From: Prorocentrum cordatum
Lineage: Eukaryota
Direction of reading: 5' to 3'
DNA: 64,000 nucleotides
NCBI GenBank assembly: GCA_963575745.1
Contig: CAUYUJ010000225.1
Span: 558,001-622,000, forward strand
In this document: one piece after another, positions 20,222 through 44,454 of the stretch
Layout: each line of letters begins with the position of its first letter
How positions within the stretch are numbered: the first letter of the stretch is position 1
The notes under the pieces: generated by a model
What the model saw: only the letters and a program-made list of their open reading frames with translations
Told to the model about the DNA's origin: nothing
Database searches by the model: none
Translations under genes and position numbers: made by a program

Positions 20222-20257
<36 letters not shown>

Positions 20258-20700
20258 TCTCCCATATGCTGATACCTGCACTCTCAGTCGCAACATGATC
20301 ATCACCAGCATCCTCATCTCTCACGCACGTCCACAGATCCTCAGCGCCACGATCACCAACAGCATCATCACATTCACACAAACATACTCAGCAAATCCTC
20401 ATCACCACCACCACCACTACTCGTCATCCTCACACTCAGCATTACAATCACCATAATCACCTTCACCATCACCGTCACCGTCACCATCATCATCAGCATC
20501 ATCATCACCACCATCATCGCCACCATCATCATGAACAACATAATCACTGCCACCACCACCACCAGCATCATCTTCATCCTCATCCTCATCCGCATCCTCA
20601 GCATCATCGTCAGCATCAGCAGCAGCATCAGCATCAGCAGCATCATCAGCATCAGCATCAGCATCAGCATCAGCATCAGCATCAACATCACCATTACAAT
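19560..20700. repeat. (CAT)n / (CAGCAT)n microsatellite tracts (19560-19790, 20170-20260, 20400-20700)
   Basis: Direct reading. Confidence 0.9.
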
Positions 20701-24834: not shown

Positions 24835-24988
24835 CCTGGCGAAGGACCCAACCATATGCATCTCGGAATACCGTCGTTGTTGGTATCGCCTTCGTTGGAT
24901 ATTTTGATGGGGCCACGAAGCATGCGAGGAGTGTGATGATGATCATTATGATGATGATGCTGATGATGATGATGATGATGATGATGAC

Positions 24989-25039
<51 letters not shown>

Positions 25040-25443
25040 GACGACGACGACGATGACGATGGCGGCGATGATGATGCGCAGGGTCGAAACAGAGATGGGA
25101 TGGGGGGAGGAGAAGGAGGGCGAGGAGGACGCAGACGGACGGCACCATTGGGGCCTTAGGTTGAGCTCCCCATGAGGACACGAAACGTGTGAGGGGTGTG
25201 CCGAAATCGATGGCGGGGGTCGCATGCGGGCGGCATCATTTGGGCCTTGGGTGAAGCTCCCTATGGGGCCACGAAACAGGTGCAGGGTGTGCCGAAATGG
25301 TTGACTGGTGCGAAGGGCAGAGGCAGGGATGGGAGGAGGCAGGAGCGGGAGGGGGGGGGGTGGAGGAGAAAGAGGAGAGGAGAAGGAGGCGGGGCGCTCT
25401 CTTCAAAACGAGGACCCAACACCACAGGATGGTTGGCAAAAAA
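24835..25443. mobile_element. Non-autonomous repeat element family 2, copy B (with (GAT)n); abuts the retrotransposon left end
   Basis: CCTGGCGAAGGACCCAACCA start, GGGGCCACGAA units, end CTCTTCAAAACGAGGACCCAACACCACAGGATGGTTGGCAAAAAA. Confidence 0.8.
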
Positions 25444-25604
25444 TAGGATGTTTGGTAAAACTGATGGATCTCCCCGACTCCAGAACTGGCGCGGGCTTCC
25501 ACTTGCGGTTCCCTTGCTCCTGCCCTTGCCTCTTGCTTGCCCTTTCTCTCTCCCTCCCTCTTCACCGCCGCTCCGCGGCTCAAGCCTTTCTAAGGCCAAG
25601 CTGG
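25444..25604 (+). repeat. Split direct repeat A1 (161 bp)
   Basis: Identical to 41355-41515 except A25592 vs G41503. Confidence 0.97.
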
Positions 25605-25699
25605 GGGTCGGCCTCAGTTGGCCTAAGGCCGGGCCCCGGAGGGGCCAGAAGACTCCCAGGCCTGGGTCCAGGCCTGGCAGGGGCGCCCGCGGCCGCACG

Positions 25700-28600
25700 A
25701 TGCCGCGCCTGGCGCCGCGCGGCTGGTGGGCGGCAGCGTCGCCGCCCGCGGGCGCGCAGCTGCGCAGAGGTGGGGGGCCTGGGCGCCGAGCGGCGCCGGC
25801 TCACGCCAGCCGCGGAGCACCCAGAGGCGAGGCGGCATCCGTCGAGGCGGGGCCGCCGAACCCCCCCGACGAGCCAGCAGCCAGGCGCGAGCCCGCGCCG
25901 GCGCTGGCGCAGTGCCAGGCGGGGGCCGCGGGTTGCGCGTGCGCGCCGGGGCCCGCCTGGAGGAGCTGCCCCAAGGCCCAGACGCCGCCGCCGGTCGGCC
26001 GGCGCCGTGGGCGCGCGGCAGCCCTGATGCTGATCCTCGCGATGACCGTCGGGATCGTCGATGCCGACGCCGATGCCGAGTCCGCGTACTACGACGACAA
26101 CGTGGACATGAGGGAGTTCTGGCTCGATGCGCCCGTGGACCCCTCGATGCACGTGGGCGCGCCGCCGGACGGGGTCTCCCCTACCGGCGGGCGCGCTGCG
26201 CCTGCAGGAAGCAGCGGAGGGGGAACGCCGCGCGAGCGCTCCGCGCCGCCGGCTGGGCCCCCTCCCCAGGACCCGACCCACCCACCCCCCGACCCCCCCG
26301 ATGGGGATCCATCGTCCTGGATCAGAGGTTGGGGTCTTTTCGGCATCAGCTGGAAGGACATCGGCAACCGCACCTACTGGTTTGCCGAGGGGATGGGTGG
26401 GGGTACCTTCAGGGCCGTGGGGAGCTTCAGGTCTGCCTTCTCGACTCGCGAGGCAGGAGGTTGGCTTAGCTCAGAAGGTGGCTGGGTGCTCTACATGACG
26501 GACCAGATGGGCCTCACCCTGTTCGGCTCCGCGTGGCCGCTGATCGCCGGGCTCGTGGCGGTCTTCGCCGGCACCGGGATGGTCGCGCTCTTGGCCCACA
26601 GCCTGAGGACGCTCTTCGCACCCTGTAGCTGGGCGGCTTGGACCTGCGGCTTGGTGCTGGCATGCTGCCCTTGCCCGAGGCGCCGTACGCCTGGCGAAGT
26701 CAAGCTCGACAAGCTGGTTCCGCCGGCGGCCCCGCCGCTCACCGACGTGGTGTGGCATGGGCCGACTACCGGGGCCGACCCGACGACTGACTGGTATCGC
26801 AAGAGCATCAAGGAAGGCCGGGGCTCCAAGCGCGGCCAGAACGACCTCATGATCCGGGTGGACTACAGGGTTGCCCGGCTCAAGCTCAACATGAAGTCTC
26901 CTGAACGTATCAACCGCCAAGGATTGTGGGTGGAATACGATTGCGTGAAGGGTGCCAGCGACAAGAGCTTCCGGCGCGAGCTGGAGCAGCGGGATCCTCG
27001 CTGGCTTCACCTGTGCCGCTCTTCGAGCTGTACTGGGTGCAAGGGGCGCGAGAACGAGCTGCATTGCAAGGAGTACGCGGCCCTCGACAACGAAGCCATC
27101 GTAGACCTCGGTGACTACTCGAGGTTCACACCCTGCCGGATCTTCGTCTGGCTCTGGAGGGGGACGGGCCTTGTCTACAAGTTGCTACTGTACATCCTCT
27201 CGTGGTGCTCATGTTGTGGGGCATGCCTCTGCCGCCGGCGCCGCCGCCGTCCTAAGACTGGCGATGCGGAGCCTGGCGTGCAGGGGTCAGTGGCAAGGCT
27301 ACTTGACCAGGAGTCCGAGTCCGAGGTAGATGCCGAGGACAACCCTTGCGAGGCAGTGAAAGTGGGGCTCATGATCAAGGGTAAGATGCGCCCACTGGCT
27401 CCCGAGGGTTGTCGAGACGCTGCGCGAGGGGACCCTACTGTGCTGCTGGTGGAGGACGGGCGGGCCTCGGACCTCCCTCTCCCAAGTGAGGGGAGCGCAA
27501 CGGCCTGCCTCTGCGAGCATCACCGGCAGATCTACATGGTCCTGCGCTACGGCGAGAAGTGCTCTCAGGTGACCTGCTTCCGGGAAGCGGTGGGCATGGC
27601 CTCAGGGGTTCCTCTCTGTCTGCAACACCTTGGGGGTGACGCAGCCCGTGCAATACACGACAACCCAGCAGGAGTCGGGTTCTTCGCAGGACTACGGCGC
27701 CGAGCTCGGCGGAGTCCTGCAGCACGGAGCCGCACACCAGAGCGGGCAGCTGCCGCCCCAGCCAGGAGCCGCACTCCAGAGCGCACCGCACCCCCGCCCT
27801 CTGCGCGAGAGGCGCCTTCCAGCCCTGGCGACCCCGTCCCGTCGCCGGCTGGGCCACCGAGCGTGCGCTTCGAAGCGCCGCCGGTTCCGGGCTTCCCCCA
27901 GCCGCCAACTCAGCCGCCTATGCCCCTTGGACAACATTTCATTCTACGGGCGAGGGTGCATTGGCCCGAGGGGGCGCAGTGGATGATTTTCAGAGGGAAA
28001 GCAGTCGATGCCGTCGCGGCCAGCACGGTGGCCGACTACTTCGACGGTGCGCTGGCGCTCGAGGTGGCAGACCCAGCAGGCGTCGCCATCCGCTTCCTCG
28101 TGAAGCCCGACGGCGTCATCCGTGCGCCGTCTCCAGGACCCTCCGGACGCCTACCCGCAGGGTTCATCGAGGAGCTGCTCCACCACGCACCCCTGGGATG
28201 CGAGGAGCTCGGCATCGGCGTCTCGGCGACCAACGTACCCGAGAAGGTTTGGCACAAGCTGGCAACTTGGCATGGTCTGCCCGTGGGTGGCCGAGCTGGC
28301 CCACTCAGCGAGGCACGCTGGCGGCTGCTCAAGGAGAAGGTGGTCGACCTAGTCAAGTGGCACCCTGAGGGGGGCGTGGCACCCAGTCCAAGCTTCGAGG
28401 CGCAGGCCACCGAGGCGGACGCCAAGCTGCGCAGCCATTGGCGGCGGCTCGATCGCAGCAGCTCGCCCAGGCCGCCCTCGGGGTCAACAAGAAGGAACTC
28501 TCGTTCGCCGTCAGCCGAGGGCGGACGAGCAGCCAGCTCTGAGGCGCCCGCGTCAGGAGAGAGTCATCAGGGAGATGAGGGAGGAGACATGATGGCCTGC

Positions 28601-30991
28601 TACTTGGAGGAGAAGGCCCGTGGGTCAAGCGATGCGGCCGCTGTGCAGAGCGTGGCTGCTGGCTTCGGTGAGGAAGCCCAGCAGGTGCTCGCCGGCCTCA
28701 TCCGATATGCTCGATACCTCAAGCAGCAGACGAATGAGCCTGAGGAGCTCGTACGACTGGATGGGCACATTGGCAACTGGGAGGTGCTCCAGCAGGTGCC
28801 CTCGCGACCACAGACCCCAGAGGCATCGCCTAGCAGCCTCCAAGAGCTCCTCAAGCTCTCACCCGAGCACCACCGCTCACAGGGGCCGCCGGCCTCCACG
28901 GCCGACAGCGCGCCCCTGTTCGAAGCACATCCATCACTCTCGCCAGCGGTCGTCCTGCCGGCCTTCCCCGTCGGACAACGGGACGCCGGCCTCCCAGCTA
29001 CCACGGCTGGGTTGGGCCCGGTCGTCCGCCCCCAGGCGCCGAACATCAGGTCCCTGTTTTGCTACGACCAGCACGTCAGTGACTTGGGCCTGCCTCCAGG
29101 TTTGACCACAGCACCAGCACGCTACGCTGCTGGGGCCCGAGAGGACAGTGGGGGTGCCGACCCGTTCGGCCTCGTGCAGCCCGGGGCAGCGCTGGACGCG
29201 AACACCGCCAGGATGCTCCACGCGTTAGAGGGGGTTGCCAACGCCCGGCAGGGCGACAAGGCAGCTCCGCGTGGGACAGTGGCGGCGCTGGGTCGGGCCG
29301 AGGAGTTGGACGTCTACCTGGCGCGCGGCTGCGGCCAGCTGACCGTGGAGGTCTGCGACGAGGTCCTCGGACGCGAGCTGTTCTACGCTCTGCGCCGGAC
29401 CTGCGAGCAGAACAAGGCCCTCATGCTCGCCGTCGAGACGCCCACCACGGTGTCCAACCGGATCGCAATGGCGTGCGCCTCGCTCAGCTTCGGCGGCAGC
29501 AGCCTGGACAACCTGGCCCCGTGGTCGGCATCTGTGGCGGACTTCCCGACCTGCAAGACGATCGCGTTCGACAGGTACAGCGCGCCACACGACACCAAGC
29601 TGGAGCCCAGGCCCAGGGCCCCCGTGGTCTTCGACCAGTGGAAGCGGCAGGCCCAGAACATGACCAGGTTCTTCGGGCTTGTCTTCGGGCGGGAGCACGT
29701 CAAGGAGCGCCTGGACTGCCTGGAGACTCTCGCACGGGAGTGTGAGAAGGACGACCGCGCCTTCCCGCCCAAGTTCGTCTACGAGTTGTGGGAAGAGCTG
29801 TGGGCGACCTGGTGCGAGCGGCTCCGAGACAAGAAACGAAGCCTCCTGCGCATGCTGCAGACGGACAACCCCAGGAAGGAGGACCTCAAGATGGTGGCCT
29901 TTGCTCCCAGGCCGGACGGACGCCCAGCTTTCGTCTTCCCTAACGTCTTCGACCTCGAGTCTCCCACAGGCTATTACCAAGAGGTCGTACGCCCGCGACA
30001 GCAGCGCTACCTTCAGACCGTCCTCAACGACTCGATGCACGGGGTGCGTGGCGCCCCGGGCAAAGCTGGGGAGGTCCGAGGAGGGGGAGAAGAACCAGCC
30101 GCCGAGCCTCAGGAACAGCGCGCTGGTGCCACCCCCAAGAGGAAGCCCAAGGCCAAGGCCCAGCCGAAGGCCAGCTCCGCACGGGCCGCGTACCCTGCGG
30201 GCAAGCGGCTGAACGCCCAGGAGATCAAGCTGTCGGTCCGGCATGCGCCCTGCGACAAGCAGGGCAAGCCGCTCTGCTGGGACAACTCGACCTGGATAGG
30301 TTGCAAGAAAGGAACTGCGGGGTGCTCACACTCGCACGAGCTTATCAAAGGGCTGAAGGACGTGCACTGGACCGTGCAGTGCCAGCTCCTCAGGCGGGGA
30401 GGGCTCCGCAACGCCACCAAGATCGACCCGGCGTCGGTCAACGGGAGAATTGCACAGCTGAGGGCCCAGGCGAAGACCGAGGCGGACAGCAAACGGGCTG
30501 CAGGCGCTGGCGCGGCGGAGAGCCAACCTTCCAAGACGGGTTGGGCGCCACCCGACGAGTACGCCGAGGTCCAGTGCACCGAGCTGGAGTCAGAGCTTCG
30601 AGAAGCCGCTCAGGGGCCCGATGCGACCTGGCTCGAGGACCCGCGGGCCAACAGCCCGGCCCTGATCGGGACGAGTGTCTGCGCAGACGAGGGAGCTCTG
30701 GCCCAGCGGAAGCTGCTCGAGGCCGTCCAAGAGAGCGGGGCACTCGACCCCGTGAGCCATGCCAGTGACTACATGCGGTCGCACGTCTTGGCGCGTCTCG
30801 CGTGCGCCCGCGGGCGCGGGGAGGAGCTTTCGGTTGAGCAGGTGCTCCTCGAGGCGACGAGCCAAGGCGGACCCACCTTGGCCGCCGAAGCTAGCGAGCT
30901 GCTGGACCGCCTTGGGGCGAAGGCTGGCAACCTGGGAGCCGACCCCGATGTCATCATAACGCCAGTGAGGTGGGCGCTGAGAAATCGGTAG
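25700..30991 (+). CDS. Retrotransposon ORF1, gag-like (hydrophobic/TM segments, Cys/His zinc motifs, CCCH finger)
   Basis: Long open frame; the track start at 25196 lies outside the element and the true start is uncertain (ATGs at 25448, 25700, 26027). CCCH motif CWDNSTWIGC-KKGTAG-C-SHS-H at ~30275-30337. Further motifs HLCRSSSC...HC and CEHH...CSQVTC...CLQH. Confidence 0.85.
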   Translation: MPRLAPRGWWAAASPPAGAQLRRGGGPGRRAAPAHASRGAPRGEAASVEAGPPNPPDEPAARREPAPALAQCQAGAAGCACAPGPAWRSCPKAQTPPPVGRRRGRAAALMLILAMTVGIVDADADAESAYYDDNVDMREFWLDAPVDPSMHVGAPPDGVSPTGGRAAPAGSSGGGTPRERSAPPAGPPPQDPTHPPPDPPDGDPSSWIRGWGLFGISWKDIGNRTYWFAEGMGGGTFRAVGSFRSAFSTREAGGWLSSEGGWVLYMTDQMGLTLFGSAWPLIAGLVAVFAGTGMVALLAHSLRTLFAPCSWAAWTCGLVLACCPCPRRRTPGEVKLDKLVPPAAPPLTDVVWHGPTTGADPTTDWYRKSIKEGRGSKRGQNDLMIRVDYRVARLKLNMKSPERINRQGLWVEYDCVKGASDKSFRRELEQRDPRWLHLCRSSSCTGCKGRENELHCKEYAALDNEAIVDLGDYSRFTPCRIFVWLWRGTGLVYKLLLYILSWCSCCGACLCRRRRRRPKTGDAEPGVQGSVARLLDQESESEVDAEDNPCEAVKVGLMIKGKMRPLAPEGCRDAARGDPTVLLVEDGRASDLPLPSEGSATACLCEHHRQIYMVLRYGEKCSQVTCFREAVGMASGVPLCLQHLGGDAARAIHDNPAGVGFFAGLRRRARRSPAARSRTPERAAAAPARSRTPERTAPPPSAREAPSSPGDPVPSPAGPPSVRFEAPPVPGFPQPPTQPPMPLGQHFILRARVHWPEGAQWMIFRGKAVDAVAASTVADYFDGALALEVADPAGVAIRFLVKPDGVIRAPSPGPSGRLPAGFIEELLHHAPLGCEELGIGVSATNVPEKVWHKLATWHGLPVGGRAGPLSEARWRLLKEKVVDLVKWHPEGGVAPSPSFEAQATEADAKLRSHWRRLDRSSSPRPPSGSTRRNSRSPSAEGGRAASSEAPASGESHQGDEGGDMMACYLEEKARGSSDAAAVQSVAAGFGEEAQQVLAGLIRYARYLKQQTNEPEELVRLDGHIGNWEVLQQVPSRPQTPEASPSSLQELLKLSPEHHRSQGPPASTADSAPLFEAHPSLSPAVVLPAFPVGQRDAGLPATTAGLGPVVRPQAPNIRSLFCYDQHVSDLGLPPGLTTAPARYAAGAREDSGGADPFGLVQPGAALDANTARMLHALEGVANARQGDKAAPRGTVAALGRAEELDVYLARGCGQLTVEVCDEVLGRELFYALRRTCEQNKALMLAVETPTTVSNRIAMACASLSFGGSSLDNLAPWSASVADFPTCKTIAFDRYSAPHDTKLEPRPRAPVVFDQWKRQAQNMTRFFGLVFGREHVKERLDCLETLARECEKDDRAFPPKFVYELWEELWATWCERLRDKKRSLLRMLQTDNPRKEDLKMVAFAPRPDGRPAFVFPNVFDLESPTGYYQEVVRPRQQRYLQTVLNDSMHGVRGAPGKAGEVRGGGEEPAAEPQEQRAGATPKRKPKAKAQPKASSARAAYPAGKRLNAQEIKLSVRHAPCDKQGKPLCWDNSTWIGCKKGTAGCSHSHELIKGLKDVHWTVQCQLLRRGGLRNATKIDPASVNGRIAQLRAQAKTEADSKRAAGAGAAESQPSKTGWAPPDEYAEVQCTELESELREAAQGPDATWLEDPRANSPALIGTSVCADEGALAQRKLLEAVQESGALDPVSHASDYMRSHVLARLACARGRGEELSVEQVLLEATSQGGPTLAAEASELLDRLGAKAGNLGADPDVIITPVRWALRNR

Positions 30992-33900
30992 GTCAAGGCT
31001 CCGTCACAGTGCAAGGCCATACTTGGCGCTACCTCGACTACCAGGACCAGCTGCCTTTGGACGAGTGCATCGCCAAGCGATTACAGGTGGCCGCCGGTGT
31101 TTCAGAAGAGCGGCAGTGTCTCCCACTTCACCTGGCAGCCGCCAAGCTTTGGGTACATCTGGAGACTCCACCCGACGCCCAGCAGGTCAAGGACCTGGCC
31201 CTCGAGATCCGCAGGGACCTCCTGGAGAAGGCTACCGACGCAGCCGCAGGTCTCGCCGATGCCCCGCCCTGGATATCTCCCAGGGAAGCCGAGGTCCGGA
31301 TGCACATCCACGACGCAGTGCATCGCGACCACGACAAAGATTTCCGATGCGTCGCCCTCTTCCCATGCGAAGCCTTGGAGGAGGTGGTGCTTAGAGTATG
31401 GCGTGCAGACCACTGGGGTCATTTGGATATCGATACGGTCCTCCCCGTGGGAGAGCCCAAGCAGGAGTGCCACGTGATTATCCATCGCGGGCATATGCGT
31501 GTCCTCCACCCACCGCCCGGGGCCGACGGCCGGCGAGTAGCGGACGAGCTCATCCGCACCTGGGCCACGAGCGGGAAGGACCTCAAGGAGCTCCCCACCA
31601 TGGGCTGGGAGACGTACCTCGCCTCGGAGGAGGATGGCAGCCCGGTGGTGGCCAGCAAGCCCCCCCCATGCCAGCATTGCAGAGCCTTGGCAGCACAGCA
31701 GCAGCAGCGTGGGAGAGCCGCCGGCGGTGTAACCGCCGCGGTCGAGCTCCCCACCGAGGTGGAGTGTCCAGACTTCGGGGACTTGGAGCCCCTGCGATGG
31801 AGGCCAGCGTTCGCATGGGGGCTCAGGACGCGGGAGATTTTCGCCGGGACTGGGCGTTGGACGCAGGCCATGAAGGATGCGGGCATCGCCACCAGCGAGT
31901 CTGTCGAGTACTTCGGGCAGCCGTTGCTCGGCAAGGACCCCCGGCCACAGTTCGACATACGCGACCCACTGGTACGAGAGCGCCTGTACCAGGAGTTCAG
32001 CGCGCCCCCTGGCCCCGACGAGGCCAACGTGCTGCAGTTCGCCCCACCCTGCGTGAGCCATTGCCCCTGGCAGTTGGCGGCAGGAGGGACGAGGACTTTC
32101 GAGTGCCCAGATGGAACCGGGGAGCGGCAGATCGAGATCGACGGCAACATATTCGGGGAGTTCGCGTGCATCGGGGCGAAGAGGGGCTACGAAGCGGGAC
32201 GAGAGTTCCTCATCGAGTCGTCAGCACGGGATGGGCGGTACCCCAAGCTGTGGGATCGCCCCTGCATGCGGACCTTGATGCGCGCGACGGGAGCCCGGGT
32301 TCTCGCCATAGACATGTGCGAGTGGGGGCTTGCACCACCGGACGAGCCACAGCATCGGTATCAGAAGCGGACCTGGTGGTTGGCATCACTTGGTCTCTAC
32401 CCCTATGCCTTGATTCTAGCCAGGAGGTGCACAGGCCATCACATGCACCGCACGTTGGAGGGCGGCCTACCGTATGATCTAACGGACGCCCAGGTAGAAG
32501 CCTACAACCTTGATGCTCGCACGCGGCTCAGTAAAGCCGAGGCCAGCGAATTGATCAACCTCAGCACCAAACTGAGCGAAGCCGGCGAGTACTACGGCCT
32601 CGACAGCGACGGGGTCACCGTCACACTGCCCCCGGACGACAAGCTGATCCGCGTGAACCAGCTCATCGCGCGAGCTGCCCCAGACAATTTCCACTGGGCG
32701 AGGATCGATTTCCGCACCAAGCGGCACTACTCCGCCTTGCCGGAGAGCCAGTGGGCCCTCTACTTCGGCAAGACCCCCGAGGGCGAGCTCCGCTTCACCC
32801 TCGGCAAGCAGGCCCCGTCCAACCTGGAAGGTGGAGGACGTGTTCCCAGCGGTACTCCCCAGCTCAGTGCAGCGGTAAAAGGAGAGTTGGGAAGCGCAGG
32901 CTTCGGGCTGGGATTGCGGGGCATGCGGAGGACCCAGCACGCAGGGCAATATGCACCGCGGCTGTGCGCTGCCTGGGCAGCCGTGCTCAAAGCAGCGGCT
33001 GCCGGCACCGCCCCAGAGAAGCTGGAACAACAGATCGCCGCTATGGATGCCGAGGCGCGGGCTTTGGAGGAGAAGTTGGAAGACAAGGTGGCGCGGGCCA
33101 GGCGCTATGACGCCCTGGAACAAGAACCCCCCCCCTCTTTTCAGCCTCCGACCTGTGCGGGAGAGGGCGGCGGCACCGCAGATGGGGCCACCGACGAGCA
33201 CGAGCATAGCGTGAAATGCGGCAGCCTGGAGCAGAGCGCCAACACCTGCTGCCTACCTCATTCGATATGGAGAAGCTCAATGGAGGTCGAATTCGAGGGG
33301 GGCTCAAAGGGCCACCAGGGAGGTGGTCGTTCAAAGGACGGCTACCTGGAGAGGAACGAGGCGGAGGCGGATGGCCTAAGCTCAAAGGGCGAAGGCCGAG
33401 GTGAGGAAGAGGTGGAGGTGGAGACCGACGGCGAGCCAGCCATAACCACATGGGGTGGCGACGAGAAGCGTGGTGGCAGACGAGGTGGCAAGCGAGGGGG
33501 CTGGAAGCGCAACAAGGCGCGCAAGCGTGAAGCACGCGAAACTGCTGCTCGCGGAGGTGGCGGATCTGGCGGAGGTGGCGATGATGACGGCGACGGGGAC
33601 GAGAGCCCCGAGGAGGAAGAGGAGGAGAACCGCCGCCAGAAGAAGGCGAGGGAAGCCGAGGACGAGGCGTCGCGGGCCAGCCCGGTGCGGGTCTTCGTCC
33701 CGCAGCAGGGGGACCAGTGGGTGTTGCTCAAGGGGGGCCCGTTCGAGGCTGGAGAGGTTAAGGCAAGGTTAAGGGTCGCCGAGACACTGTCCGGGGGCTT
33801 CTTCGACGCCGACCAGTTGTACCTCTTCGAGTACACAGAGGATGACGATACTGCAGGGGCATATGGGCCACCTCTCGACGACGAGGAAGCGGTGCGCCCC

Positions 33901-36900
33901 GGCGAGAAGTTGCCGCTGTGGGCCACGCTGAAGCCGCCCAAGGAATGGACCAGTTGGAGCCCCCGGTGGAACCGGGACCAACAACCCGCACCTGGGGCCA
34001 CAGCCCAGGAGGGTCAGCGGAGAGTCACGGCCAGGATTGCTGATAGAGCGGCAGCAGCAGCAGCAGCGCCGGCAAGGCCGAGCGGGGCCGCAGCGAGCTC
34101 AGCAACCGGCAGTGGCCGCCAGCCAGCCCCAACGTTCAGCGAAGTGGCGGCAGCAGCGGGCGGCGCCCGAGCGAGCTCGGTACCCCCGTCCAGCGGTGGC
34201 ACTTCGAGGAGTTCAGGCGCTTTGATGCGAGTCGAGGAACAGCTCGCTGAAGCTCAGGGGCAGCATGCCCGAGCAGCGAGCGAGGGCGGCGACCAGGAGC
34301 TGAGCGCGGCGCGCGTGGTAGGACAGCTGGAGATCAGGCGCAACGAGGTCCAGGCCCGCCGCGCTGCCCGGCTCGAGCGCGAGGCGCGCCGGCGGGAGCG
34401 CGAGGACCAGAGGGCCTCCAGCGCACCCCCAGAGCCCCACAGCCCACAGGTGCCCACGGAGGCCCCTCCTCCGCCCGAGGCGGAGGAGGACCCAGAGACC
34501 ACCTCGGAGGAGATGGGACGCCGGGTTGCCGAGGCGCACCCGGGCGTAGCCTGCCGTGGGGGGGTCCACAAGTGCAACGCTGCTCGACGATTCGTCAAGA
34601 ACTTCAACGACGTGCGGAGGGGTGGCAAGAGCCACGACCTGCAGCATGCTGATATCCTGTATCTGAACGGGATCGGGCAGATCAGCGACGTCTTGATGCA
34701 GGCATATCCCGGGGCCGACCCGACGGACCCATCCCTGCCGCCGGAGCCTCGCCAGCTCGGCGAGATCCTGGCGCGCTACGTGGAGGAGCACGAGACGTTG
34801 AAGCTCAAGATGACGAGCTTAGGCATTCCACGAGACGAACAGGCCGGTGGTGGAATCCTGGACCCCATCTACGTCGCGACTGAGAAGACTTACGTCGAGG
34901 AGTACGAGGGTCGGGATGTCCCAAGCGCTCGCAGCCGCAGCCGCCGGCGGAGTGGAGGAGCAGCCCCCTCTGGGGGAATGAAGCCCCCCGGGGGCACTCC
35001 TGGCGACTCAGAGTCATCTGCCTCCGAGACGATGGCCCCTGACACCCGAGGCCGGCTGCGAGCGAGGTCGCCCCAGGATGAGAGCCGGGGGCGCGGCTCC
35101 GCCCCGGACCCGAGGGATCCAGGGCGCAGGTGCGGAGGCCCTGAGGTGCCGCCGGCGGACACCCGCCGAGGCGCGCACCAGAAGGGCTGTGCGGAGGCAC
35201 ACCAGGACGAGAGTCGATCATCGCCGGTGACACCCCGGCCTGGCACCTCCGAGGCCAAGGAGTACTTGCACTGGTGCCTGGAGCATGCTGAGTTTGCTCC
35301 CGAGCTGGTGAAAGAGGTGACGGATCTGGGGAACCGCCTGCTACTCGCCGCAGGGAGCGTGGAGGCAGCAGCAGCGAGGCTCCGCGAGGAACGGGAGCTC
35401 GCCCTCGGGAACCCGCTCGGGGGAGTGCTCGATCCCGAGTTCGGCGAGGCGCTCGAGGAGGATCACCGGCTGTACCTCCAGGAGATGGCGAGCAGGGGCG
35501 TCCCCGTTCGGAGGCAGCAGCCCAGGCGCCGAACTATAGCCAAGCCCCACGCTTCCGCGAGGGACCATGCCCTGGAGATGTACGCCAAGGCCTGGAAGGA
35601 CACGTCCTACGGCGCCGTGCTCTGGGCCACTCCGGAGGCCGAGGCCGCCCTGTCCGCTTCCGAGCTCATCGAGAGCCCGTCAGGGCGTGTGCCTAAGATG
35701 TTGCCGGACCGCACAGTGAGCAGCGAGGGACGCCCCATACATGATATGAGGGTTGCCAATGGAGACTCGCCCAAAGAGCTGCATCCGCCAGCGCTCCAGC
35801 CCAAGCACGAAGCTCTTGTGCGCCTGTCACTCTGGTGGTCCGCACGCCACCCGGGCGTCCCGCAGGTGATAGCCAAGCGGGACGTGTCGCGGGCCTTCAA
35901 GTGGCACTGGGTGCGCGACGAGGACGTGGCCGAGTTTGGCACCTCCCTCCCCGGCGACGCCGTGGGTCTGACCACGCGCGTGATCATGATCCACTGCGTG
36001 ATGGTCTTCGGGTGGTCGGGGTCGCCGGGCGAGTACATGGCGTTCGCCTGGAGTGCCAAGTGGGACCACGAGCGGCGCCGCCCACCAGACCCAGCGGTCA
36101 ACGACACAGTGCGCTGGTCGTCCAAGTGGCTGATGGACGACGGCGTCTTGGTCGAGCCGCTGGTCGGCCTTCGGCCCTGGCTCAGCGCAGCCGACTGCGA
36201 CGCGAGCATGCGGCGCGTCTGGGGCGACGACGCGATCAACGTCGACAAGATGGCAGAGGAGGGCACTTTCCAGGCAGAGCAGCTGGTCTGGGGCCTATAC
36301 TTGGATGTAGACAAGCAGCGCTCGAGGCTCCCCGAGCCCAAGTGCGTGAAAGCCGCCCACCTCTTGGCGATCGACGAGCTTCGCTATGGATGCCGACGGG
36401 TTCCCATCAAAGTCGCCCAGGAGCTGAGGGGGTCGGCCCAGTTCTGGGTGGCTACGCAGCCGGCTATCAAGCCCGAGCTGCCGGTCATTGACCGCCTCCT
36501 CGGCGGTGGGCTCAGCGCAGCCTGGGCGGAACCCCGAGGTAGCGCTGAGGAGGTCGCCCTTGCCTGGGACGAGTGGGACCAGACCCTTGAGCTGCTGCGG
36601 GTGCTCTTCGACGCACCCGAGGCCTGGGCGCCCACTTTCGAGGCGAGCTTCATTTCCTGTCCAGGGCCGCGCGAGCGCCTGGCACTCCCAGGGGCCGCCG
36701 CCCGGACGAGATGGACTGGGGGGGGCGCAACCACGACGACCATCGGCAGCATCGACTGGGGGCGGGCAGTGGCCGGCAGCAAAGCGATGCCACCTCACTA
36801 CATGGCCGTGGACGCCGCCCCGCTCCTACGCCAGCTGGAGGACGTGCTGAGCCACCCAGGGGCCGAGAAAGATTGGGCGATCGCCATCGTGGAGCTGCTC

Positions 36901-39900
36901 GCGTTTGTAGCCCTAGCTGCCGCTAGGGGTAGCGAGTGGCAAGGCGAGCTGGTCTTCTACGTCACCGACAACATGAACGTGCGGTCGTGGATTTCCAAGA
37001 GGCGGCCCAAGCACCCGCTGGCACGGCACCTCATTCGCCTCGTCCAGCGCCTGGAGGCTTGCTACGGGTTCAGCACGACCGCGCTGTACATACGCACTTA
37101 CCACAACGACATCGCGGACTGGCTGTCGCGGGAAGAGGCCAAGAAGGTCCACTCCGAGCTTCTTCGCAAAGGGTGGACCCGTATCGAGCCGCCCGAGGAA
37201 TGGGGGAAGATGCTGGCCGAGGCAAAGGAGCACCTCCTGCGGCTACCTGGAGAAGATGGGCCCATTGCGGAGTCAGCGCTCCGGCATCGGGCGCTGAGGA
37301 CCCCAGCAGCGGTGCCACGCAACCTCGCCCTCACAGGGCGCCGGGGCCTCGAGCTGGGAAGCCCACTGGGGACTTACGGGCGAGCCTGGGAGCAGCTCGG
37401 TGGCGAGCTGACCACGGGCGACTCCACGGGGGTGGACTGGATCATGTGCACGCTGTCTCTGGACCCGAAGGGCTTTGAAGTCGAGAAGTTGGCATCCTCA
37501 ATTACCAGGGCGAGGCCACAAGTTGTTGTGGTCGACGCCCCGGGCAAGCTCGACCTGACCCGCGTGGTCAAGGTGCTGCGCAAGCTGGGGTACCGCGTGT
37601 ACGATCTGGAGGTCGTCTGCACCCACTACGGCGACATGACAGCTCGAGCTCGGAGCCTGATCGTGGCGGGCAAGGGGCCAGCAGGCATTAGCCTGGCGGG
37701 CACGCGTATGCCGCCGGCGCGCCGCTGTCCCCATGGAGTGAAGCACGCGCTGAAGGACAAGCCCAGCGAAGGCTGTCACCACTGGCTCGACGACGAGGGG
37801 AGCGCCACCTGGGACCCTGCAGCTCGTGGGGGCTCCGACCCTACACTGCCCAAGGGCATCGGCCACGTCAAGATCGCCGGCACCAAGCAACTGGTCTGCT
37901 CAGTCGACGGCCCGATCGGCACGGTTCGCTGGCCCGCTGAGGGCCCGGGCGGACCGGGAGGAACCCTGATCCACGTCCCAGGACGCAGTGGCGGGCGCAT
38001 CAGGGCGCTGTCGCCGGAAGAAGTTTGGATCGTGCAAGGAGGCGACGAGGCGTCGTGGGTGCAGCGACGAGCCCGAGGCGACTCCGAGGCCACCCTGATG
38101 CGGGAAGCGGCGAGGTCCCTGCCGCCAGAGACGGCGAGAGCTGTACTTGGTTCTGCTGCGGACGCACTGTCGCAGACCACCCAGCGGGCAGGCGGCTGCC
38201 ACGATCCCGCAGAAACGGCCGCCTGGGAGACGACCCGACGGTGGCTCAGGGCATGGGCGCGGAGCGAGCTCCAGGTGAAAGCTGACAGGCCAGAGGACAA
38301 CCAGCATGCTGGGGTACTGAGCGACGACGTCCATAAAGCGAGGCGCAAGAGCCAGGGCGTCCGCTTCAAGGCCATCGAGGAGGACCTCGTGCGGGGCCCC
38401 GAGCCCCCCCCCGACGCGGAGGAGGTGGACCTGGACGCAGTCGTCAACATCCCCAAGAAGCGGCGGAAGAAGAGCCCCAACCGGGGCAAGAAGGTGGAGA
38501 CCCAGGGCCTGGTCAAGCCGGTCGCCCTGGGCCGCGCTCGTGCCTCCATCGCCCTGCCGGACCACCCGATGCTGGGAGGGGACGACTACGGCCGGTGGAT
38601 CGAGGAGCAGAAGCGTGAGGCGCTGATGCTGCGACTGTCCGAGGGAACCCGCGCTGGCTACGAGACCGGCTGGAAGCAGTGGCAGAGCTTCAGAGCAGCC
38701 CAAGGGGAGTCGCCCTGGCTGGAGGGACGCGACCGCGAGGAGCGACACGCCAACGAGGAGGCACTGTTGGGCTTCGTCATCGTGTTGGCTAAGGTGCTGA
38801 AGCGCACGGAGGGTACGGTAAAACAGAAGTTGTTCGCAGTGCGCTTCGCCCACCTCGTGGTCGGGTACCCAGATCCTCTACTCCACCGAGGCCGTCTTTG
38901 GTCCACGCTCGCCGGCCTCCGGAGAGGCCAAGGGCCGAGCGGGAGGAAGCGGCCAGTGACGCCTCGTATGCTCCTGTGGCTTCAGGGCTTCCTGAAGGAC
39001 CAGTCGGACCTCCCTGAGGCGGACACCGCTGTCCTGTGGGCCGCCGTGGCGGTGGCCTTCTTCTTCATGTTGAGGGCGTCCGAGTACCTGGTCCAGCCCG
39101 GGAAGACATGGAGTCGAGAGCGCGTCGTGCGTGGAGTGGACGTCACGGGCCGCAGTGGCGACAACAAGCCCTGTGCCTTCAAGGACGCGGTGGAGGCGGT
39201 GCTCCACATCACCTCCTCGAAGACCGACCAGTACAACGTGGGATGCGTACGGAACCAGTACGAGACGGGCACATCATTGTGCCCCGTGGCAGCACTCCGC
39301 CAGCTGGAGCGGCACTACCCGCAGAGGCTGCGGGGGAGCGAGGAGGAGCTCCCACTCTTCCGCTGGGCGAGCGGAGCGCCCATCCGTCGCGAGGAGGTGC
39401 AGCACTACCTGACGATCGCAGGGCTTGCCGCCGGGCTGCGGAAGGAGGAGATCGGCTCGCGCAGCCTCCGCATCGGGGGCGCGACAGCGATGTACCACGC
39501 CGTGGACGACTTGCAGCGCGTCAAGCGCTTCGGGCGCTGGGCCTCCGATAGCTTCCACGGGTACCTGTGGGAGAGCCACGAGCCCATGCGCGGCATCTCG
39601 ACCAACATGGCGACGGATGCGTCCGAGCTCACGGCGCCGCCGGCCCATGGGGCCGAGGGCGCGCGCCGTGCAGGCAGGAGCCCGACCCCGCTTTGGCCCA
39701 AAGCAGCGCTGACCATGACGACGCTCGCCGCTACGGCTGGCAGCGCAGACGGCTACGTGCTCAAGGTCAGCCCGGTGGAGAGTCAGAATCTGCTGATCCT
39801 CGTGCTCCCGGTCGGCTTGGGAGCTTGGGCGATGGCGGCGGGGGTGCTACTGACAGCCGTGCTGCTGAGCGCTGCATGGCGGCGCGAGCAGCAGCGAAGG

Positions 39901-40464
39901 CGCAGAGGAGCGGCCCGCAGGCGCGGCAGCAGCTGCAGGATCCGCGTCCCCTGCGCAGGCATGCTGTGCGCAGCGCTGGTGGCGACGGCGCTCACGACAG
40001 CAGCCGGAGAGGTACAGAGCCGAGAAGTGGCGACTGTTGACGGCAAGGCCCAGGGGGCCATGCTTCGCTGGGAGCCGCAGATGGGTACGGTGGCGATCAT
40101 TGTCCCGGTGGGAACGGCGATGAAGGTGGGTGCCACGATCGCAGTGCTGCTTGCAGCAGGCATCGGGGTGATTGGTGGCTGCTGCTGCAAGATGGCCAAG
40201 GAGGACGAGGGTAGGCAGGGGCCAGCCGTGCAGCAGGCCGCCGCGCAGCAGACGCCCAAGGTGCATAAGCCTCCCAAGCAGCCGCAGAGGACGTTTTGCG
40301 ACGCAGGGGTGATGGGCCCGGTGCACTACAATGGCGTGAGGTACGTGCACGAGACCCAGGGCTTCCGCCGGGCCAACGAGGTGACGCGGGAGATGGCCCC
40401 GTCAGGGCACCGCGGGTCATCAGGATGGCCCCGTGGAGGGGAGCAGAGGCCGCACCGTGACTAG
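30970..40464 (+). CDS. Retrotransposon ORF2 polyprotein (putative Cys protease, C5-MTase, Ubl, RT, RNase H, degenerate MTase, tyrosine recombinase, TM tail); probably continuous with ORF1 via a -1 frameshift
   Basis: 3164-codon open frame with no in-frame ATG near its start. Motifs are listed in the sub-features below. Confidence 0.93.
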   Translation: MGAEKSVGQGSVTVQGHTWRYLDYQDQLPLDECIAKRLQVAAGVSEERQCLPLHLAAAKLWVHLETPPDAQQVKDLALEIRRDLLEKATDAAAGLADAPPWISPREAEVRMHIHDAVHRDHDKDFRCVALFPCEALEEVVLRVWRADHWGHLDIDTVLPVGEPKQECHVIIHRGHMRVLHPPPGADGRRVADELIRTWATSGKDLKELPTMGWETYLASEEDGSPVVASKPPPCQHCRALAAQQQQRGRAAGGVTAAVELPTEVECPDFGDLEPLRWRPAFAWGLRTREIFAGTGRWTQAMKDAGIATSESVEYFGQPLLGKDPRPQFDIRDPLVRERLYQEFSAPPGPDEANVLQFAPPCVSHCPWQLAAGGTRTFECPDGTGERQIEIDGNIFGEFACIGAKRGYEAGREFLIESSARDGRYPKLWDRPCMRTLMRATGARVLAIDMCEWGLAPPDEPQHRYQKRTWWLASLGLYPYALILARRCTGHHMHRTLEGGLPYDLTDAQVEAYNLDARTRLSKAEASELINLSTKLSEAGEYYGLDSDGVTVTLPPDDKLIRVNQLIARAAPDNFHWARIDFRTKRHYSALPESQWALYFGKTPEGELRFTLGKQAPSNLEGGGRVPSGTPQLSAAVKGELGSAGFGLGLRGMRRTQHAGQYAPRLCAAWAAVLKAAAAGTAPEKLEQQIAAMDAEARALEEKLEDKVARARRYDALEQEPPPSFQPPTCAGEGGGTADGATDEHEHSVKCGSLEQSANTCCLPHSIWRSSMEVEFEGGSKGHQGGGRSKDGYLERNEAEADGLSSKGEGRGEEEVEVETDGEPAITTWGGDEKRGGRRGGKRGGWKRNKARKREARETAARGGGGSGGGGDDDGDGDESPEEEEEENRRQKKAREAEDEASRASPVRVFVPQQGDQWVLLKGGPFEAGEVKARLRVAETLSGGFFDADQLYLFEYTEDDDTAGAYGPPLDDEEAVRPGEKLPLWATLKPPKEWTSWSPRWNRDQQPAPGATAQEGQRRVTARIADRAAAAAAAPARPSGAAASSATGSGRQPAPTFSEVAAAAGGARASSVPPSSGGTSRSSGALMRVEEQLAEAQGQHARAASEGGDQELSAARVVGQLEIRRNEVQARRAARLEREARRREREDQRASSAPPEPHSPQVPTEAPPPPEAEEDPETTSEEMGRRVAEAHPGVACRGGVHKCNAARRFVKNFNDVRRGGKSHDLQHADILYLNGIGQISDVLMQAYPGADPTDPSLPPEPRQLGEILARYVEEHETLKLKMTSLGIPRDEQAGGGILDPIYVATEKTYVEEYEGRDVPSARSRSRRRSGGAAPSGGMKPPGGTPGDSESSASETMAPDTRGRLRARSPQDESRGRGSAPDPRDPGRRCGGPEVPPADTRRGAHQKGCAEAHQDESRSSPVTPRPGTSEAKEYLHWCLEHAEFAPELVKEVTDLGNRLLLAAGSVEAAAARLREERELALGNPLGGVLDPEFGEALEEDHRLYLQEMASRGVPVRRQQPRRRTIAKPHASARDHALEMYAKAWKDTSYGAVLWATPEAEAALSASELIESPSGRVPKMLPDRTVSSEGRPIHDMRVANGDSPKELHPPALQPKHEALVRLSLWWSARHPGVPQVIAKRDVSRAFKWHWVRDEDVAEFGTSLPGDAVGLTTRVIMIHCVMVFGWSGSPGEYMAFAWSAKWDHERRRPPDPAVNDTVRWSSKWLMDDGVLVEPLVGLRPWLSAADCDASMRRVWGDDAINVDKMAEEGTFQAEQLVWGLYLDVDKQRSRLPEPKCVKAAHLLAIDELRYGCRRVPIKVAQELRGSAQFWVATQPAIKPELPVIDRLLGGGLSAAWAEPRGSAEEVALAWDEWDQTLELLRVLFDAPEAWAPTFEASFISCPGPRERLALPGAAARTRWTGGGATTTTIGSIDWGRAVAGSKAMPPHYMAVDAAPLLRQLEDVLSHPGAEKDWAIAIVELLAFVALAAARGSEWQGELVFYVTDNMNVRSWISKRRPKHPLARHLIRLVQRLEACYGFSTTALYIRTYHNDIADWLSREEAKKVHSELLRKGWTRIEPPEEWGKMLAEAKEHLLRLPGEDGPIAESALRHRALRTPAAVPRNLALTGRRGLELGSPLGTYGRAWEQLGGELTTGDSTGVDWIMCTLSLDPKGFEVEKLASSITRARPQVVVVDAPGKLDLTRVVKVLRKLGYRVYDLEVVCTHYGDMTARARSLIVAGKGPAGISLAGTRMPPARRCPHGVKHALKDKPSEGCHHWLDDEGSATWDPAARGGSDPTLPKGIGHVKIAGTKQLVCSVDGPIGTVRWPAEGPGGPGGTLIHVPGRSGGRIRALSPEEVWIVQGGDEASWVQRRARGDSEATLMREAARSLPPETARAVLGSAADALSQTTQRAGGCHDPAETAAWETTRRWLRAWARSELQVKADRPEDNQHAGVLSDDVHKARRKSQGVRFKAIEEDLVRGPEPPPDAEEVDLDAVVNIPKKRRKKSPNRGKKVETQGLVKPVALGRARASIALPDHPMLGGDDYGRWIEEQKREALMLRLSEGTRAGYETGWKQWQSFRAAQGESPWLEGRDREERHANEEALLGFVIVLAKVLKRTEGTVKQKLFAVRFAHLVVGYPDPLLHRGRLWSTLAGLRRGQGPSGRKRPVTPRMLLWLQGFLKDQSDLPEADTAVLWAAVAVAFFFMLRASEYLVQPGKTWSRERVVRGVDVTGRSGDNKPCAFKDAVEAVLHITSSKTDQYNVGCVRNQYETGTSLCPVAALRQLERHYPQRLRGSEEELPLFRWASGAPIRREEVQHYLTIAGLAAGLRKEEIGSRSLRIGGATAMYHAVDDLQRVKRFGRWASDSFHGYLWESHEPMRGISTNMATDASELTAPPAHGAEGARRAGRSPTPLWPKAALTMTTLAATAGSADGYVLKVSPVESQNLLILVLPVGLGAWAMAAGVLLTAVLLSAAWRREQQRRRRGAARRRGSSCRIRVPCAGMLCAALVATALTTAAGEVQSREVATVDGKAQGAMLRWEPQMGTVAIIVPVGTAMKVGATIAVLLAAGIGVIGGCCCKMAKEDEGRQGPAVQQAAAQQTPKVHKPPKQPQRTFCDAGVMGPVHYNGVRYVHETQGFRRANEVTREMAPSGHRGSSGWPRGGEQRPHRD
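31822..32990 (+). other. C5 cytosine DNA methyltransferase domain (within ORF2)
   Basis: Motif I EIFAGTG (31834), catalytic APPC (32041-32052), FLIES (motif VI-like), IDMCEWG...YQKRTWWL, and C-terminal RTQHAGQYAPRLC. Confidence 0.85.
33685..33933 (+). other. Putative ubiquitin-like (beta-grasp) domain (within ORF2)
   Basis: VRVFV...EVKARL...DQLYLF...GPPLDD...LPLW parallels ubiquitin MQIFV...NVKAKI...DQQRLIF..GKQLED...LHLV. Confidence 0.5.
35430..36500 (+). other. Reverse transcriptase domain (within ORF2)
   Basis: SPSGRVPK, GRPIHDMR, KRDVSRAF (35875), MVFGWSGSP, LMDD (36130-36141), VWGLYLD. Confidence 0.93.
36700..37135 (+). other. RNase H domain (within ORF2)
   Basis: WTGGGAT, IAIVELLA, YVTDNMNV, YIRTYHNDIADWLSR. 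Confidence 0.88.
37339..38160 (+). other. Second, degenerate C5-methyltransferase-like domain (within ORF2)
   Basis: ELGSPLG (I-like), RPQVVVVD (VI-like), LRKLGYRV...HYGDMTARARSLIVA (VIII-like), RALSPEEVWIVQG (IX-like), ARSLPPETA (X-like). No PC catalytic dipeptide. Confidence 0.65.
38620..39580 (+). other. Tyrosine recombinase with N-terminal core-binding domain (within ORF2)
   Basis: SEGTRAGYETGWKQW, FFFMLRASEY (R at 39073), SSKTDQ, LCPVAAL, GSRSLRIGGAT, KRFGRWASDSFHGY (Y at 39562). Confidence 0.93.
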
Positions 40465-41151: not shown

Positions 41152-41354
41152 GCGGCGTGGCCCGCTGCGCGTGGCCGAAGACGGCGCCGGCGCGTGGAGC
41201 GCCGGGCGCCAGCACAGGGAGCGGCACGGCCCCTTTGGCAAAAAGGGTCGTCGTCATCATCTGAGCCGTGCACGTCCCTCTTTTCCTCCCTCTTGAGCCC
41301 CTGCCTACTAGGCTCAAGAGGTTTTAGTTTACCAGTGCTGCTTGAGGGGATATC
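41152..41354 (+). repeat. Split direct repeat B1 (203 bp)
   Basis: Identical to 41601-41803 except C41301 vs T41750. Confidence 0.97.
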
Positions 41355-41515
41355 TAGGATGTTTGGTAAAACTGATGGATCTCCCCGACTCCAGAACTGG
41401 CGCGGGCTTCCACTTGCGGTTCCCTTGCTCCTGCCCTTGCCTCTTGCTTGCCCTTTCTCTCTCCCTCCCTCTTCACCGCCGCTCCGCGGCTCAAGCCTTT
41501 CTGAGGCCAAGCTGG
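41355..41515 (+). repeat. Split direct repeat A2 (161 bp)
   Basis: Copy of 25444-25604, directly abutting B1. Confidence 0.97.
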
Positions 41516-41600: not shown

Positions 41601-41803
41601 GCGGCGTGGCCCGCTGCGCGTGGCCGAAGACGGCGCCGGCGCGTGGAGCGCCGGGCGCCAGCACAGGGAGCGGCACGGCCCCTTTGGCAAAAAGGGTCGT
41701 CGTCATCATCTGAGCCGTGCACGTCCCTCTTTTCCTCCCTCTTGAGCCCTTGCCTACTAGGCTCAAGAGGTTTTAGTTTACCAGTGCTGCTTGAGGGGAT
41801 ATC
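41601..41803 (+). repeat. Split direct repeat B2 (203 bp), element right end
   Basis: Copy of 41152-41354. Confidence 0.97.
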
Positions 41804-42243
41804 CATGATCCCAGTGCGACCCTACCTAGGAGTTGGAGCATCTAGGAAAGCAACATCTACATCTACACCGACAGCTACATTAACATCTACACCTGCATCT
41901 ACATCTACATCAACATCAACAGCGAGATTCACATCTACATCTACATCTACACCTACATCTACACCTACATCTACACCTACATCCACATCCACATCCACAT
42001 CCACATCCACATCCACATCCACATCCACATCCACATCCACATCCACATCTACATCTACATCTACATCTACATCTACATCTACATCTACATCTACATCTAC
42101 ATCTACATCTACATCTACATCTATCTACATCTACATCTACATCTACATCTACATCTACATCTACATCTACATCTACATCTACATCTACATCTACATCTAC
42201 ATCTCTACATCTACATCTACATCTACATCTACATCTACATCTA

Positions 42244-43815: not shown

Positions 43816-44195
43816 TACATCTACATCTACACTTTCGCATTGGTTTTGCTTTTGCTTTGCATTGCCTTGCCTTAGCTGTTGCTTTTGTTGTTGCTGTTGT
43901 TTTTGCTTTGCATTGTGTTCGCTTTTGCTGGATTTTGTTTTTGCTTTGCCTGCGCACAGACACACACACACGCATGTTTTCGCATTCGCTCACCGGGTGT
44001 GCTCAACATCTACAGTTACACCTACACCTACACCTACATCTACATCTACATCCACATCTTCAGCTAAGCTAAGCTAAGCTGAGCTATGCTATGCCATGCT
44101 ATCTTATGTTATGGTGCGCTATGCTATGCTAAGCTAAGCTATGTTATGCTATGCTGCGCTTTGCTTTGTCTTGCTTTGCTGTGCACCCAGCGACA

Positions 44196-44423
44196 GCAGG
44201 CTGTTCAGCACTGCTCGCGGCTCCTGCAAGAGCTGCAGGCTGTTCAGCACTGCTTGCACTAGGTTCAACACTGCTCGCGGCTCCTGCAAGAGCTGCAGGC
44301 TGTTCAGCACTGCTCGCAGTTCCTGCAAGAGCTGCAGGCTGTTCAGCACTGCTTGCAAGAGCTGCAGGCTGTTCAGCACTGCTCGCGGCTCCTGCAAGAG
44401 CTGCAGGCTGTTCAGCACTGCAG
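44196..44423 (+). repeat. 39-bp tandem repeat GCAGGCTGTTCAGCACTGCTCGCGGCTCCTGCAAGAGCT with deletion variants
   Basis: About 6 units read directly. Confidence 0.9.
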
Positions 44424-44454
44424 GTTTCTGCTGTTGCTTTGCCTTTGCTTTGCT

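Follow-up and report, generated by a model that had tools for sequence, protein, structure and literature searches.

The window analysed here is a 64,000-nt stretch of Prorocentrum cordatum DNA (GCA_963575745.1, contig CAUYUJ010000225.1, positions 558,001 to 622,000 of the forward strand), and within it lies a 16.4-kb DIRS-like retrotransposon with the repeat order A-coding-B-A-B. The polyprotein of this element contains an internal domain modelled with the OTU fold, which is probably a divergent cysteine peptidase that uses a Cys50-His175 pair and would cleave after Gly-Gly-type sites. We infer that the domain is catalytically active; cleavage after Gly-Gly is proposed by analogy with OTU enzymes and with the OTU-like proteases found in polyproteins of RNA viruses. 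An earlier note on this DNA had suggested an OTU- or papain-like cysteine protease at a gag-pol boundary, and the predicted fold, the conservation of the Cys and His and the position within the polyprotein support the OTU-type reading.

Mobile elements and viral polyproteins with OTU proteases are already known; what is new here is the element class, the position and the sequence family of the domain. We found no report of an OTU domain in a tyrosine-recombinase retrotransposon in open-access papers and bioRxiv. Neither "OTU" nor "protease" occurs in the main text of the paper on DIRS elements bearing a DNA methyltransferase (DNMT) (de Mendoza et al., 2018, PMC5890265) or in a 2026 preprint on DIRS methyltransferases.

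Conservation of the Cys-His pair

The domain opens ORF2, the second of two very long open reading frames (ORFs) of the element, and its features are as follows.

30970..31569, + strand: OTU-fold domain, ORF2 residues 1-200 (AlphaFold2 model, OTU fold matches, 367 relatives)
30991-31515, + strand: structured core of the OTU-fold domain, residues 8-182 (AlphaFold2)
31117..31119, + strand: codon of Cys50, the putative nucleophile, in the motif E-x-R-Q-C
31309..31347, + strand: H-D-x2-H-x2-H-D-K-D-[FY]-R, a motif specific to the family and lying between helical lobe and sheet (alignment)
31492..31494, + strand: codon of His175, the putative general base, in the motif H-R-G-H-M

Both codons singled out in the earlier note are where it had placed them. 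TGT at 31117-31119 in EERQ-C-LPLHLAAA (GAG CGG CAG TGT CTC CCA) encodes C50 of ORF2, CAT at 31492-31494 in VIIHRG-H-MRVL (ATC CAT CGC GGG CAT ATG CGT GTC) encodes H175, and the spacing, estimated at about 125 residues, is 125 residues. A search with residues 1-237 of ORF2 against 1.84 billion cluster representatives found 367 relatives at E<=0.001, of which 203 reach E<=1e-10; the relatives are counted as clusters at 50% identity, and 150 of the 367 are listed. The conservation analysis used an alignment of 74 rows, consisting of the window and 73 domain-spanning relatives out of 152 proteins collected, with a pairwise identity to the window of 26-51%. In this alignment the Cys and the His are nearly invariant, as are several other residues:

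D23: 70/73 rows
E46 (position Cys-4): Glu in 72/73 rows
Q49: 71/73 rows
C50: 72/73 rows with a residue
R81: 71/74 rows
E106: 70/74 rows
R110: 69/74 rows
H114: 71/74 rows
D115: 74/74 rows
H121: 71/74 rows
D124: 73/74 rows
R126: 74/74 rows
H175: 73/74 rows

Contigs of four public runs were compared with positions 30700-31700 of the window; one run may be the window's own source sample, and the four are thus not all independent. Among the 40 of 82 variants listed, 34 are synonymous and 35 fall at third codon positions, and the domain is under purifying selection. A chance Cys/His pair in a non-conserved linker, or an ORF that is no real gene, has a virtually negligible probability and is refuted by the 367 relatives, the near-invariance of both residues, a model with a mean confidence of 95 and the predominance of synonymous variants.

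Fold and distance from canonical OTU enzymes

AlphaFold2 modelling of residues 1-200 from a 56-sequence alignment gave a confident structure, with a predicted local distance difference test (pLDDT) score of 95.4 and a predicted template-modelling score (pTM) of 0.91. The predicted order is a beta-hairpin (8-14, 17-23), three helices (50-64, 70-94, 104-117) and four strands (139-146, 152-157, 165-172, 175-180). The earlier note had expected the Cys at a helix start and the His at a terminal strand, and in the model C50 is the first residue of helix 50-64 and H175 the first of the last strand, 175-180. The OTU variant of the papain-like fold, a conserved Cys at the N-terminus of the central helix and a conserved His at the start of a C-terminal strand are all found in model and alignment.

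When the model was compared with the PDB by Foldseek, all 36 matches listed were OTU-family enzymes, including nairovirus viral OTUs (vOTUs), otubains, Cezanne, DUBA, OTUD1/2/3, TRABID and OTUs of Wolbachia and Legionella. The scores are modest, with a best E of 5e-4, a single match at E<=0.001 and query template-modelling scores of 0.22-0.41. A library of predicted viral structures yielded eight matches at E<=0.001; among the named ones are a nairovirus L protein, foveavirus replicases and giant-virus proteins with an OTU or ubiquitinyl hydrolase annotation, and also baculovirus VP80 and a chrysovirus coat protein. In a language-model atlas the three best named clusters carry PF02338 with scores of 0.84-0.86, which we treat as leads only. 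A transglutaminase-like reading of the Q-C motif was rejected because no such fold is among the structure matches.

Several results weigh against an OTU peptidase. None of 56 family members matched PF02338 or PF10275 at E<=10, and none of seven matched NCBIfam. For a profile comparison, canonical OTUs were collected by a back-translated Cys-box scan of viral contigs, which gave 33 loci; 21 ORFs were scanned with Pfam, and the 13 that were PF02338-positive were aligned, with D-G-N-C and the His as invariant columns. Against these 13 sequences, hhalign gave the family alignment a probability of 0.09% and an E of 0.6, i.e., no statistical support. At Cys-3, the place of the canonical Asp, the family is variable (K 19, P 16, E 10), and the third triad residue expected two positions after the His is missing as well (R 48, V 8, T 8 of 74 rows). 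Finally, the H-D-x2-H-x2-H-D-K-D-[FY]-R motif has no counterpart in the canonical OTU alignment. The best hhalign path is collinear, placing Cys50 on the Cys of DGNC and His175 on the invariant OTU His, at low significance; this pairing is consistent with the fold match and is not independent evidence.

These observations bear on the possibility that the OTU-like scaffold serves another function, either as a pseudo-protease that binds ubiquitin, nucleic acid or the methyltransferase, or as an enzyme built on the H-D...H...D...R cluster, which might bind a metal together with Cys50 and His175. The cluster (D115 and R126 in every row, H114, H121 and D124 nearly so) matches the conservation of the Cys and His and has no canonical OTU counterpart, the third triad residue is missing, and no sequence profile links the family to OTU. 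Pseudo-enzymes, however, usually lose the nucleophile, and here both the Cys and the His are retained at the canonical structural positions. Many OTUs carry Asp, Asn or Glu two residues after the His, and some OTU-like enzymes are without such a residue. Some viral OTU-like proteases need a Cys-His pair only, among them presumably the turnip yellow mosaic virus (TYMV) proteinase, which is one of the fold matches. We therefore regard another function as improbable. In the peptidase that we favour, the family-specific motif possibly supplies the residue that orients the His. More tentatively, the Cys-His pair might be completed by this His/Asp loop and not by the canonical third residue.

Other searches did not place the domain in a known sequence family. 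Using phmmer, neither the OTU domain nor the whole ORF2 matched PDB sequences; the domain-alignment profile retrieved from the PDB only a RanBP2 row at E 1.6, a chance match; and tblastn against phage records found no match. A PF02338 search for control OTUs found no match in a genome reached via an E. coli locus or in 14 control genomes. Relatives P0003 and P0004 carry the precomputed Pfam label PF26692, of which we found no mention in the open-access literature. This family probably does not cover the OTU domain, since P0038, which consists mostly of that domain, is without a precomputed family.

Position within the element and its polyprotein

The element occupies a block with a G+C content of 0.65-0.69 at ~24-42 kb of the window, which contains the two ORFs at 25196..30991 and 30970..40464 on the + strand. 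It is bounded by split terminal repeats in A-coding-B-A-B order and not by simple long terminal repeats, as is characteristic of DIRS-like elements.

25444..25604, + strand: repeat A, 5' copy (161 nt, 99% identity with 41355-41515)
41152..41360, + strand: repeat B, first copy (209 nt, 99% identity with 41601-41809)
41355..41515, + strand: repeat A, second copy (99% identity with 25444-25604)
41601..41809, + strand: repeat B, second copy, and 3' end of the element (99% identity with 41152-41360)
26027..30991, + strand: ORF1-frame part of the polyprotein, collinear with P0003 residues 1 to ~1,700
30971..30991, + strand: site at which this copy switches from the ORF1 to the ORF2 frame (ORF1 stop codon 30989-30991)

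Pfam searches over both ORFs gave a single match, to Phage_integrase (PF00589) and below threshold. No protease family matched ORF1 or ORF2 at E<=1, i.e., an aspartic protease was not found, and no integrase family that would indicate the DDE type was among the Pfam matches of either ORF. This agrees with the excerpts of PMC3783388 and PMC3950715, which describe the DIRS-like class as lacking an aspartic protease and a DDE integrase. According to reviews and classification schemes, DIRS, Ngaro and other retrotransposons of the tyrosine-recombinase type carry no protease.

The polyprotein runs from a gag-like part ending in a CCCH knuckle through the OTU domain, a cytosine methyltransferase fold and putative reverse transcriptase and RNase H regions to a putative tyrosine recombinase. 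ORF1 is listed as 25196..30991 (1,931 codons), and its first ATG that fits the N-terminus of the relatives is at 26027. It is gag-like by position, with membrane segments predicted near the N-terminus and no Pfam family. ORF2 (30970..40464, + strand) comprises 3,164 codons.

The two ORFs are separated by a -1 frame shift immediately after TGG 30971-30973. One additional base behind 30974 is present in all seven covering contigs from the four public runs (2, 2, 2 and 1 contigs), which indicates that other copies have ORF1 and ORF2 as one frame of ~4,800 codons from ATG 26027. Likewise, the relative P0003 (4,809 aa), which is 50% identical to ORF2 over its first 420 residues, has ORF1-like and ORF2-like sequence in a single frame, as do P0004 (3,401 aa) and P0013 (3,270 aa). 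The simpler reading is that the single base is either a private difference of the window copy or an error of the assembly, and the ORF boundary is not a feature of the family. Programmed -1 frameshifting at the overlap was dropped in view of the extra base in other copies and the in-frame relatives. The gag-pol boundary proposed in the earlier note holds insofar as the domain lies between the gag-like and the enzymatic parts, but the family has no separate pol ORF starting at this point, as the seven contigs and P0003 read through. Across the family the OTU domain is internal to one giant polyprotein of ~3,300-4,800 residues.

Hydrophobic segments resembling membrane spans, with Cys-rich stretches, occur at both ends of the polyprotein (26027-26700 and 39700-40300), as seen in LIAGLVAVFAGTGMVALLAH close to the N-terminus and AVLLAAGIGVIGGCCC close to the C-terminus; such segments are unusual for a retrotransposon.

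Candidate cleavage sites and possible roles

Gly-Gly motifs occur on both sides of the OTU domain.

30275..30337, + strand: CCCH zinc-knuckle-like motif C-x8-C-x6-C-x3-H in ORF1 (15-sequence alignment)
30386..30403, + strand: LLRRGG motif resembling the C-terminus of ubiquitin, conserved in relatives
33469..33504, + strand: tandem array of three [KR]RGG motifs within an acidic/basic spacer of low conservation

The CCCH motif has the invariant positions C226, W227, G234, C235, C242 and H246 in 15 sequences. LLRRGG lies 21 residues downstream of it and ~235 residues upstream of Cys50. At this site [KR]RGG is found in 13 of the 16 rows with residues in a 19-row alignment and in 13 of 15 rows of the 15-sequence alignment, where the Arg before Gly-Gly (R266) is invariant. 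Judged from these motifs, LLRRGG is a candidate cleavage site. Downstream, KRGGKRGGW is also present in P0003; the closest relative alone shares the spacer, and more distant relatives are without it and its [KR]RGG motifs. LALPG(A/G) at 36679-36696, present in five of five relatives, was considered as a second cleavage site and dropped because it adjoins the RNase H core and is without other support.

Our preferred reading, plausible though short of probable, is that the OTU domain is the element's own maturation protease, which would cut the gag-like part off the enzymatic part, most likely at the candidate site LLRRGG. The polyprotein of ~4,800 residues might then be matured at RGG sites that resemble the ubiquitin tail, namely LLRRGG upstream and the KRGG repeats downstream. 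More tentatively, the lineage may have built a retrovirus-like Gag-protease-Pol layout independently, with an OTU cysteine protease replacing the aspartic protease.

The chief rival reading is that the domain acts as a deubiquitinase, either solely or alongside maturation. In the exclusive form of this reading the domain would be an active OTU deubiquitinase, or would remove a ubiquitin-like modifier, with host or element proteins as its substrates and no part in polyprotein processing; we consider this rather unlikely. Such an enzyme might shield element proteins from ubiquitin-dependent degradation, or it might act on chromatin or repair factors at integration; suggestions of this kind have been made for DNA transposons with OTU and Ulp1 domains. 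The closest solved folds among the matches listed are all deubiquitinases, and the OTU domains of Ginger1 and Helitron elements, which have no polyprotein, are discussed as acting in the ubiquitin pathway in the excerpt of PMC2836005. In addition, apart from LALPG(A/G) before RNase H, no conserved Gly-Gly was found at the other pol domain borders of five full-length relatives, which speaks for this alternative. On the other hand, the domain is embedded in a polyprotein of 3,300-4,800 residues in which separation of the gag-like from the enzymatic part is to be expected, and the conserved upstream RRGG resembles the ubiquitin tail. The two roles are also not exclusive, as OTU-like proteases of RNA viruses perform both polyprotein processing and deubiquitination. 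An OTU maturation protease may thus simultaneously strip ubiquitin from element or host proteins.

Other domains of the polyprotein

The remaining enzymatic part of the polyprotein comprises the following features.

31786..32451, + strand: cytosine-5 DNA methyltransferase fold, ORF2 residues ~273-494 (AlphaFold2, Foldseek)
31834-31854, 32038-32064 and 32209-32247, + strand: methyltransferase motifs FAGTG, PPC and ES..GRYPK, respectively
35683..36147, + strand: reverse transcriptase motifs GRVPK, KRDVSRAF, FGWSGSPGEY and LMDDGV (read by eye)
36712..37131, + strand: RNase H-like motifs WTGGGAT, VTDN and HNDIADWLSR (read by eye)
39070..39570, + strand: putative tyrosine recombinase core with LRASEY, S-R-S-L-R-IGG and FHGYLW (Pfam PF00589, below cut-off)

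The methyltransferase fold follows the OTU domain directly, and its model has a pLDDT of 76, with core blocks at 85-98. Its Foldseek matches in the PDB include DNMT1 at E 2.9e-6, with 98 matches at E<=0.001 that also comprise DIM2, MET1, Dnmt2, M.HhaI and DNMT3B. The fold region has no Pfam match; relatives retain its FAGTG, PPC and ES motifs. P0072, P0086, P0100 and P0041 contain a second subtype of the methyltransferase domain (ENPLTS, DQC).

The assignments to reverse transcriptase and RNase H are putative. The reverse transcriptase motifs are kept in P0003, P0004, P0013 and P0027, the RNase H motifs and recombinase boxes are likewise conserved in relatives, and neither the reverse transcriptase nor the RNase H region has a Pfam or PDB sequence match. 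The reverse transcriptases of Symbiodinium DIRS elements also fit Pfam poorly, according to the excerpt of PMC5890265.

The putative recombinase matches PF00589 over ORF2 residues 2777-2861 with E 0.03 and 14.5 bits, under the 27.1-bit cut-off. Matches in relatives (E 2.2e-4, 6.6e-5 and 1.9e-5) are also under the cut-off, and the R...[H/R]xxR...Y boxes were read by eye. At 39463-39489 the window has S-R-S-L-R-IGG, compared with S-H-S-L-R-IGG in P0003, P0004 and P0027; as the conserved recombinase His is Arg in the window, this copy may be impaired.

A further conserved region at 37522-38043 (VVVVDAPG ... LSPEEVWIVQGG) lies between RNase H and the recombinase and occupies the place of the Dam-like methyltransferase domain in DIRS elements. 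Among the relatives, the long proteins P0099 and P0144 also contain an RNA 2'-phosphotransferase Tpt1/KptA domain (PF01885, E 3e-11 and 1e-15). P0099 additionally has a C-terminal glycosyl hydrolase 28 domain, P0109 has an N-terminal ion-transport domain, and these two proteins are probably chimeric gene models.

Flanking sequence

Two tandem 91-nt units, 78% identical, lie at 25124-25305, immediately upstream of repeat A. Short tandem-repeat arrays flank the element: TCA/TGA triplets on opposite strands at 20146-20700 and 24907-25095, a 6/12-mer array at 41799-42264, 7/14/21-mers at 42306-43400 and 10/15-mers at 44043-45200. Strand composition is heavily skewed here (GC skew to -0.6). An intronless ORF of 588 codons at 58166-59932 on the - strand codes for EF-hands preceded by an ion-transport domain (PF00520, E 1.5e-21) and is probably a host gene. 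The public runs that contain the stretch are mostly aquatic metagenomes, and no RNA run is among those listed. A dinoflagellate spliced-leader motif has no match in the 64-kb window.

Significance and comparison with known systems

Should the domain prove active, the 367 clusters (50% identity) would make up a large exceptional lineage among the protease-less tyrosine-recombinase retrotransposons, equipped with a type of protease known elsewhere from DNA transposons and the polyproteins of RNA viruses. Activity would also account for the ability of these elements to keep several thousand residues in one reading frame. The OTU enzymes would gain a deeply divergent family that is invisible to Pfam and has an unusual active-site make-up. 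Moreover, a ubiquitin-type protease and a cytosine methyltransferase would be physically joined on one transposon, a link of relevance to the way such elements deal with silencing by the host.

Compared with cellular and viral OTU deubiquitinases (OTUD1/2/3, otubains, A20/Cezanne/TRABID and nairovirus vOTU; PF02338), the window domain shows no detectable profile similarity. Its Cys box reads E-x-R-Q-C instead of D-G-N-C and is preceded by an insert of ~20 residues, the position two residues past the His is neither acidic nor Asn, and the invariant H-D...H...D-K-D-Y-R is absent from canonical OTUs. Additionally, the window domain is encoded by a retrotransposon. For polyprotein maturation, the closest analogy is provided by the OTU-like proteases of RNA-virus replicases (tymovirus PRO, arterivirus PLP2 and foveavirus/betaflexivirus OTU). 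These belong to plant and animal RNA viruses, whereas the window element is predicted to reverse-transcribe and to integrate by a tyrosine recombinase, and cleavage is putative here.

A similar role has been proposed for the vOTU at the N-terminus of protein-primed DNA polymerases in polinton-like viruses, which would likewise release a part of a replication polyprotein; the replication enzyme and the element class differ from those of the window, and in the excerpt of PMC12721341 that role is also a prediction only. In layout, the window element resembles SymbioDIRS-Dnmt3 of Symbiodinium, whose Pol polyprotein, according to the excerpt of PMC5890265, includes a cytosine methyltransferase and whose repeats follow the order A-coding-B-A-B. 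This likeness concerns layout and domain content, and we claim no family membership for the window element. SymbioDIRS-Dnmt3 has its recombinase in a separate ORF and a DNMT detected by Pfam, whereas the window element has one frame and a Pfam-negative DNMT. Ginger1 and some Helitron DNA transposons, as described in the excerpt of PMC2836005, are like the window element in being eukaryotic mobile elements with an OTU cysteine protease domain. Their OTUs are PF02338-positive and C-terminal in the transposase, with no polyprotein, whereas the window domain is Pfam-negative and lies between the gag-like and pol-like parts.

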